Source of the DNA: an uncultured Gammaproteobacteria bacterium
Lineage (GTDB): Bacteria > Pseudomonadota > Gammaproteobacteria > DRLM01
Assembly (NCBI GenBank): GCA_947259075.1
Contig: CAMYKQ010000041.1
Coordinates: forward strand, 41,079-105,078
Length of the DNA: 64,000 nucleotides
Direction of reading: 5' to 3'
Made by a program: the position numbers and the translations under genes. Under the pieces are notes generated by a model, which saw nothing but the letters and a program-made list of their open reading frames with translations, did no database searches and had not been told where the DNA came from. Below are positions 60,166-60,415 of this stretch, one piece after another; position 1 is the stretch's first letter; each line of letters opens with the position of its first letter.

Positions 60166-60215
60166 TTCCAAAATAAAAAGGGGCAACGCCCGCGCGCCGC
60201 GCATGGCGTTGCCCC
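60166..60215 (-). terminator. Intrinsic terminator forming the expression platform of the glycine riboswitch
   Basis: On the minus strand: ggggcaacgcc-atgcgcggcgcgcg-ggcgttgcccc followed by ctttttatttt, ending 12 nt before the lipA ATG. Confidence 0.65.
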
Positions 60216-60380
60216 TCTGTCCGGGTACCTGAGAGCGTTTAGCCCCTTCGGTGGACCGCGCACGGCGATCGCTCTCCAGAGTCAACGTCCCGCAGCGGTC
60301 CTTTTGCCTGAGCGATTCCGGGCTGGTTGCGCCTTCGGCGCCCCGATTGAACGGGGCCTCTCCCGCGGGGACAAGGTTGA
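60216..60380 (-). ncRNA. Tandem glycine riboswitch (two aptamers) in the lipA-gcvTHPA leader
   Basis: The minus strand carries two consecutive GGAGAG...(G/C)CCGAAGG(C/G)GCAA...CUCAGG(C/U)A...GGAC(A/C)G cores. Aptamer 1 is gcgggAGAGgccccgttcaatcggggcGCCGAAGGcGCAAcc...CTCAGGCAAAAGGACcg. Aptamer 2 is CTCTGGAGAGcgatcgccgtgcgcggtcCACCGAAGGGGCtAAacgCTCTCAGGtacccGGACAGaGGGgc. Confidence 0.75.
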
Positions 60381-60386
60381 GGCGCC

Positions 60387-60415
60387 ACTATACCGGGGGC
60401 CAGGGCGGAAACCAA
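60387..60415 (-). promoter_or_regulatory. Candidate sigma-70 promoter for the riboswitch-lipA-gcv transcript
   Basis: On the minus strand, TTGGTT is followed by a 17-nt spacer and TATAGT. This sits just 5' of the riboswitch and just 3' of the upstream permease gene. Confidence 0.4.

Follow-up and report, generated by a model that had tools for sequence, protein, structure and literature searches.

The 64-kb window analysed here (64,000 nucleotides of contig CAMYKQ010000041.1 from an uncultured Gammaproteobacteria bacterium) carries a tandem glycine riboswitch on its minus strand, directly upstream of the lipA gene for lipoyl synthase, which is followed by the genes of the glycine cleavage system. 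Judged from the sequence, this RNA is very probably an ON-type tandem switch that controls the operon lipA-gcvT-gcvH-gcvPA-tpx-gcvPB by transcription termination and antitermination. The best-supported reading is that glycine would co-induce lipoyl synthase together with the cleavage enzymes, because the loop of helix P3b and the P5 pseudoknot mark the ON type, and P5 overlaps the base of the terminator.

Two glycine aptamers and one expression platform precede lipA

Rfam was run over the complete window with the gathering thresholds as cutoffs, which for the glycine riboswitch family RF00504 means a score of 32. Apart from a single tRNA, the only matches in the 64 kb were two adjacent RF00504 elements on the minus strand. 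Aptamer 1 matched the complete model at 60375..60286 with 67.7 bits (E 6e-12), and aptamer 2 followed at 60281..60215 with 40.3 bits (E 1e-4), leaving a gap of 4 nucleotides (nt) between the two matches. A preceding sequence-only reading had recognised a tandem glycine riboswitch on this strand from its GGAGAG, CCGAAGG and CUCAGG..GGAC cores. These cores are legible in the minus-strand sequence, and the significant scores of both matches bear out the assignment.

60286..60375, minus strand: glycine aptamer 1 (P1, P2, P3a/P3b), from RF00504 and covariation
60215..60281, minus strand: glycine aptamer 2 (P1 CUCUG/CAGAG, P2, P3), from RF00504 and covariation

Related loci were fetched with the LipA protein, taking one genome per species, and the best 80 of 327 relatives were kept (61–84% identity). 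They represent distinct species of sulfur-oxidising Gamma- or Betaproteobacteria, and all of them are gcv-linked. The gammaproteobacterial part comprises uncultured Gammaproteobacteria, Thiohalophilus, Candidatus Tenderia, Thiohalomonadaceae, Thioalkalispiraceae, Ectothiorhodospiraceae and Woeseiaceae, the betaproteobacterial part Sulfuriferula, Thiobacillus and Hydrogenophilaceae. The helices were tested by imposing the canonical structure on MAFFT alignments of 36 aptamer-1 and 40 aptamer-2 sequences; for counting pairs, P3 of aptamer 1 was set manually, the RNAalifold consensus having drawn a wrong small hairpin there.

The canonical structure holds for both aptamers, as the sequence-only reading requires. 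Of the canonical pairs, 95.5% are formed in aptamer 1 (36 sequences), with compensatory changes at 11 pairs including all five of P2 and five of P1, and 94% in aptamer 2 (40 sequences), with compensatory changes at 8 pairs including all six of P2. The covariation score was reached by none of 500 shuffles for either aptamer, and pairing fell to 25–46% in both when the partners were slid by 1–3 columns. P3 and aptamer-2 P1 are nearly invariant and thus uninformative on covariation. The P1 helix measures 8 base pairs (bp) in aptamer 1 and 5 bp in aptamer 2. In three relatives (L050, L056 and L068), the P2 hairpin of aptamer 2 contains an insertion of about 130 nt, which extends the aptamer to about 195 nt with the conserved cores kept. 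We conclude that the RNA is an ordinary RF00504 member of the tandem ON form, and it presumably binds glycine.

The two aptamers share a single expression platform, a hairpin with a U-tract directly 3' of aptamer-2 P1; the linker between them is too short, at 4 nt, to hold another one.

60170..60215, minus strand: intrinsic terminator, consisting of the hairpin 60215..60180 and the U-tract UUUUUAUUUU (60179..60170)

The hairpin has an energy of −28.6 kcal/mol, and its core was also picked up by a terminator scan. Hairpin and T-tract begin no more than 3 nt from aptamer-2 P1 in 64 of 75 sequences. The terminator described earlier ahead of lipA is therefore real, whereas its distance from the gene needed correction: 16 nt rather than 12 separate the last U of the U-tract from the ATG of lipA at 60153.

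The riboswitch heads a probable lipA-gcv operon

All genes downstream of the riboswitch as far as gcvPB lie on the same strand:

59209..60153, minus strand: lipA, lipoyl synthase of 314 amino acids (aa) (TIGR00510 equivalog, NF009544, Pfam Radical_SAM and LIAS_N)
58122..59216, minus strand: gcvT, aminomethyltransferase (NF001567, 470 bits)
57692..58087, minus strand: gcvH, lipoyl-carrier H protein (NF002270, 190.6 bits)
56158..57516, minus strand: gcvPA, glycine dehydrogenase subunit 1 (NF001696, 615.6 bits)
55621..56118, minus strand: tpx, thiol peroxidase (NF001808, 243 bits)
54784..55581, minus strand: BglII-like endonuclease (Pfam PF09195, 84 bits)
54075..54815, minus strand: MT-A70 methyltransferase (Pfam PF05063, 109 bits)
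52449..53903, minus strand: gcvPB, glycine dehydrogenase subunit 2, the last gene of the conserved operon (NF003346, 744.6 bits)

The first gene had been called lipA, and its product passes the equivalog cutoff of TIGR00510 (344.7 bits vs. 310.25), scores 373 bits with NF009544 and contains the CX4CX5C motif of the auxiliary cluster, the radical-SAM motif CX3CX2C and the C-terminal RSSY motif. The overlap of lipA with gcvT, likewise noted before, amounts to 8 nt. The transcript had been given as lipA-gcvT-gcvH-gcvPA; this order is right, but it stops too early, as tpx, the cassette of the BglII-like and MT-A70 genes and gcvPB come next. The transcript probably extends through all of these. The genes for the two halves of the P-protein are separated by tpx and the restriction-modification cassette. 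The NCBI copy of the LipA protein of the window is longer by 17 codons (331 aa), its annotated ATG (60204) falling within the loop of the terminator hairpin; this deposited start is probably wrong, because homologues align from the ATG at 60153.

The sequence-only reading had stressed that the riboswitch stands before lipA rather than gcvT. Its position is confirmed, but it is not unusual, since at least 75 species show the same layout. A covariance model built from the 36 aptamer-1 sequences detected the riboswitch immediately before lipA in 75 of the 80 loci, of which two are truncated by contig ends, and an Rfam re-scan confirmed all 8 riboswitch-positive loci submitted to it. Aptamer 1 never occurs without aptamer 2 in these loci. 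In one further locus, the upstream sequence was too short for a judgement, and four loci (L032, L033, L067 and L079) gave no riboswitch with the aptamer-1 model, in agreement with Rfam, and keep lipA-gcvT-gcvH-gcvPA. As judged from tblastn synteny, gcvT is the next gene after lipA in 78 of the 80 loci, the contigs of the other two ending first. The subsequent order in the relatives is gcvH, gcvPA, often tpx, and finally gcvPB. Because 75 of 80 loci share it, the placement of the riboswitch before lipA represents a conserved operon design and not a local rearrangement.

Some loci depart from this picture in their own ways. L033 retains a remnant of the 3' end of aptamer 2 (GGACAGCGGGGCGACGAAGGGCC, 5916–5938), but its hairpin has decayed and no T-tract is left. 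The Sulfuriferula locus L025 carries two copies of the tandem riboswitch at 147–348 and 1520–1711, 1.4 kb apart, the upstream copy having the lower score (38.6 bits). Two small open reading frames between the copies (819–1070 and 1074–1385) resemble a CcdA/CcdB-type toxin-antitoxin pair by eye, which suggests that the leader was duplicated by an insertion.

We also weighed whether the riboswitch governs lipA only in practice, with the gcv genes transcribed mainly from one or more internal promoters and a weaker coupling as a result, and consider this improbable. Spacers of 140–297 nt between lipA and gcvT in some relatives, the four relatives with lipA-gcv but without the riboswitch and the gcvH-gcvPA spacer of 175 nt in the window (57517–57691, minus strand) would fit such an arrangement. 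It is opposed by the 8-nt overlap of lipA and gcvT in the window and by spacers below 60 nt in most relatives. Because only 16 nt lie between the U-tract and the ATG and the two genes overlap, there is no room for a separate noncoding promoter before lipA or gcvT, and a promoter scan of the minus strand from 53500 to 61000 yielded no promoter-like site. The sole terminator-like site in a minus-strand scan between gcvPB and lipA is a weak one inside gcvT (58931..58917), which probably arose by chance because shuffles yield 7.3 such sites. A relocation of the riboswitch to a place between lipA and gcvT was rejected, as no Rfam match appeared there in the scanned long-spacer or switch-less loci. 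We likewise rejected a second or degenerate aptamer in the gcvH-gcvPA spacer, whose GGGAGAGGG...CCUCUCAG includes GGGAGAG and resembles pieces of a glycine aptamer core, since an Rfam scan of 52000–60600 at E ≤5 gave no match in this spacer.

P5 overlaps the terminator base and points to an ON switch

The contact that points to the direction of the switch is a pseudoknot, P5, between the P3b loop of aptamer 1 and the segment following aptamer 2.

60320..60323, minus strand: 5' strand of P5, GCCC in the P3b loop of aptamer 1
60211..60214, minus strand: 3' strand of P5, GGGC, doubling as the base of the 5' strand of the terminator

The first eight nt after aptamer-2 P1 (GGGGCGAC; GGGGUGA in Betaproteobacteria) are conserved far beyond the needs of the terminator stem, and this G-rich segment is complementary to the aptamer-1 P3b loop in nearly all loci. 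P5 has 4 bp in the window (GCCC:GGGC) and 5–7 bp in most relatives. The usual form in Gammaproteobacteria is CGCCC:GGGCG, extended to CCGCCC:GGGCGG in six loci and to AUCGCCC:GGGCGAU in four, and Betaproteobacteria have UCACCC:GGGUGA and CACCC:GGGUG. L071 shows CGUCC:GGACG as compared to CGUCC:GGGCG in other loci. In a set of 25 distinct sequence pairs, the five core pairs are hardly ever missing, and the exchanges observed across loci include C-G to U-A and G.U to A-U. At pair 4, 17 distinct sequences have G-C and 7 have A-U; none of 500 shuffles reached the covariation score.

This pseudoknot has already been published (Kladwang 2012; Torgerson 2018, PMC6239177; Torgerson 2020, PMC7161355). 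It is typically formed by polyC and polyG strands and is usually mutually exclusive with part of a helix of the expression platform (PMC7161355, PMC6239177). In the survey of tandem switches, P5 was present in 87% of those associated with aminomethyltransferase genes and in >99% of those associated with glycine dehydrogenase genes, both of which are taken as ON switches, and was absent from all symporter-associated OFF switches; the OFF tandem switches have a P4 helix in aptamer 1, and most of them lack P3b (PMC7161355). Where glycine riboswitches preceding gcv genes were put to the test, they acted as activators (cited in PMC7161355). The element in the window combines a P5 overlapping the terminator base with gcvT, gcvH, gcvPA and gcvPB downstream, and thus has the features of the ON class, although its immediate downstream gene, lipA, is outside the three classes analysed in that survey. 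It bears the published structural signature of an ON switch, and because P5 competes with the terminator base, glycine most likely switches the operon on.

The opposite direction, in which glycine would promote termination and repress lipA-gcv, is highly improbable: it would suit an apparent autotroph (prk is encoded, see below) running the cleavage system towards glycine synthesis, and it gains something from the overlap of terminator and aptamer-2 P1 by one nucleotide and from a thermodynamic fold in which aptamers and terminator coexist, but the P3b loop and P5 are present and covarying while the published survey has P5 in no OFF switch (PMC7161355), the aptamer-1 alignment has no extra helix in evidence (P4 was not specifically searched for), a P5 that sequesters the terminator base implies ON logic, and the known activators upstream of gcv genes speak for induction as well.

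As another possible element of switching, we examined pairing of the linker GUUG with CAAC of the terminator 5' strand as an antiterminator. This pairing is convincing in the window but not specific to the locus and was rejected, the energy being −3.4 kcal/mol with the own and −3.1 kcal/mol with foreign partners, and 55% of cross partners being as good.

Promoter and P0 helix

The distance of 282 nt between the stop codon of an ABC-transporter permease gene (60436) and lipA is fully accounted for by promoter, riboswitch and terminator. The elements at its upstream end are the following:

60410..60415, minus strand: −35-like hexamer TTGGTT, read in the sequence, with 3 of 6 matches to TTGACA
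60387..60392, minus strand: −10 hexamer TATAGT, 17 nt from TTGGTT, from sequence and positional conservation
60376..60380, minus strand: 5' strand of the P0 helix, leader UCAAC, at or beside the probable transcription start
60282..60286, minus strand: 3' strand of P0, inter-aptamer linker GUUGA

The promoter TTGGTT-17-TATAGT proposed by the sequence-only reading is present, although with only 8 of 12 consensus positions matched it stays below the threshold of the promoter scanner, which did not list it. What speaks for it is the conserved position of the −10-like hexamer just 5' of P0: of 67 related loci, 62 have a TAnnnT hexamer 21–25 nt 5' of the GGGAGAG core of aptamer 1, with TATAGT in 27 and TAAAAT in 16. 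Transcription would accordingly be expected to start at the beginning of the P0 leader strand.

The leader and the inter-aptamer linker form a duplex, P0, with a mean energy of −6.5 kcal/mol for the own partner vs. −4.0 kcal/mol for foreign ones (65 distinct loci, Wilcoxon p = 2e-11). Covarying versions of the helix include UCGAC/GUCGA, UCGGC/GCCGA, CCGAC/GUCGG, UCGAUU/AAUCGA and UGUCC/GGACA. A C-rich stretch 5' of P0 was considered as a partner for the G-run and rejected; it is not conserved, and it is probably outside the RNA because it lies 3' of the −10 box but ahead of the likely start of transcription.

Directly upstream of the riboswitch (60436–63095), there are genes for an ABC-transporter substrate-binding protein and for a fused two-domain permease. 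This gene pair is syntenic at 55–87% identity in roughly half of the related loci.

Proposed mechanism and points weighing against it

In the proposed mechanism, the polymerase would begin at the P0 leader strand, some 7 nt past the TATAGT box, the two aptamers would fold, and the leader-linker helix P0 would hold both together. Without glycine, the GC-rich hairpin 60215..60180 is predicted to form, and the polymerase would stop 16 nt before lipA. With glycine, the docked aptamers would stabilise aptamer-2 P1 and P5 (GCCC:GGGC). P5 would then take up the G residues at the bottom of the terminator stem, so that the stem could not close beside the U-tract and read-through into the operon would result. 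Glycine would thus raise the levels of the cleavage enzymes and of the lipoyl synthase converting octanoyl-GcvH to lipoyl-GcvH.

Several points weigh against this proposal. The case for a glycine response is drawn from sequence throughout, for the RNA of the window and for those of its close relatives alike. Aptamer-2 P1 and the terminator share one nucleotide only, G60215, and a competition between these two helices is therefore insufficient on its own. The P5 pseudoknot, which would take over this role, had no experimental validation in a tandem switch according to PMC7161355, and the P5 of the window has 4 bp to set against a terminator of −28.6 kcal/mol, so that switching must be kinetic. 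No tandem G.A consensus of a P0-P1 kink-turn was seen in the leaders and linkers by eye (no dedicated model was run); a canonical kink-turn occurs in only ~28–39% of tandem switches (PMC7161355). There is no terminator between the permease stop at 60436 and the riboswitch promoter, which would allow read-through from upstream to give transcripts with a longer leader. Finally, an internal promoter inside lipA or farther downstream is possible. Co-induction of lipA and the gcv genes by glycine nevertheless stays the best-supported reading.

Meaning of the lipA association

The element is typical of its well-studied riboswitch class, its conserved association with lipA is modestly new, and it is the regulon that differs; the regulatory logic is otherwise as a specialist would expect. 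LipA inserts sulfur into octanoyl-GcvH. Because it acts on this form of the H protein, induction of the apo-H protein would go along with that of its activating enzyme. Cofactor maturation would thereby join the glycine riboswitch regulon, with the enzyme for the lipoyl arm of the H protein under the same signal as the H, T and P proteins. In addition, the set of loci represents a natural covariation series for P0 and P5, and because P5 and not P1 is the main element overlapping the terminator, these sequences are good candidates for a direct test of P5.

In the full-text library searched, no paper links a glycine riboswitch to lipA, lipoyl synthase or lipoate; the downstream-gene table of Torgerson 2020 may already list it. 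The supplements of Crum 2019 contained no lipoyl terms.

The organism itself is probably a Calvin-cycle autotroph, in which glycine would come from phosphoglycolate salvage, as suggested by a gene for phosphoribulokinase (prk) in the window (31473–32348; NF011997, 506 bits). Two further readings, which we judge jointly and regard as unlikely, are that the riboswitch-controlled lipA codes for the only lipoyl synthase of these autotrophs and that lipoyl-GcvH is a redox partner of Tpx. If the first were true, glycine would gate all protein lipoylation, including that of pyruvate dehydrogenase. If the second were true, the locus would be a module for glycine-induced lipoylation, glycine cleavage and antioxidant functions and not only a catabolic operon. 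The tpx gene is a conserved and unexplained companion of the glycine cleavage genes, located between gcvPA and gcvPB in 35 of the 54 related loci informative for both halves, and a connection with the dithiol of lipoyl-GcvH can be imagined.

Other features of the window

The cassette at 54075..55581 is a type II restriction-modification system, whose endonuclease and methyltransferase genes overlap by 32 nt. Its G+C content is 0.52–0.56, as compared to 0.62–0.68 in the flanks. Among the 80 related loci, only L001 has it (87–89% identity); its absence from L002 and L003, which are just as close, identifies it as a recent insertion.

Near the phosphoribulokinase gene, we found genes for a CysB-family regulator (25917–26834) and for a protein related to the NirA/sulfite reductase family (27815–30130), the latter with scores below the curated cutoffs. 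A tRNA gene (2382–2455, 71.7 bits, anticodon loop CAU) follows rpoD and is itself followed by a fragment of an IS256-family transposase gene (3173–3751) and by about 4.5 kb (~3750–8280) without open reading frames of high third-position GC. This region beside the tRNA gene may be a foreign island.

Comparison with known systems

With the lipB-lipA genes of E. coli, the locus has the enzyme family in common, the LipA protein of the window being 46.5% identical to that of E. coli. The best NCBIfam subfamily of the window LipA is NF009544 and not NF004019, which we take to be the model of the E. coli-type LipA. The lipA gene of the window differs from that of E. coli in being part of a gcv operon, in standing under riboswitch control and in having no adjacent lipB; tblastn searches with E. 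coli LipA and LipB found neither a second lipA nor a lipB in the window or the 80 loci.

The type-1 singlet riboswitches, as known from Clostridium tetani (PMC6239177), are ON switches and resemble the element in the window in their pseudoknot, whose C-rich strand is the P3b loop and whose G-rich partner overlaps the terminator. Mutating the C-G pairs of the pseudoknot lowered the response of such a singlet (PMC6239177). The second aptamer of the singlets is reduced to a ghost helix, whereas both aptamers of the window are complete and above the Rfam threshold.

The closest counterparts are the tandem ON switches upstream of gcvT in B. subtilis (gcvT-gcvPA-gcvPB) and at VC1422 in V. cholerae (Mandal et al. 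2004; Torgerson et al. 2020, PMC7161355). Shared features are two homologous aptamers with conserved cores, a longer P1 in aptamer 1 (8 bp) than in aptamer 2 (5 bp), P0, P5, one platform with an intrinsic terminator after aptamer 2, and gcv genes downstream. In B. subtilis, the 5' strand of the terminator includes the GGACAGAG segment. In the window, it starts after P1, and the competition should therefore proceed mainly through P5. The element in the window further differs from both counterparts in that no canonical kink-turn sequence was recognised, that tpx and a restriction-modification cassette are included in the operon, and that the first gene under its control is lipA instead of gcvT or gcvP.

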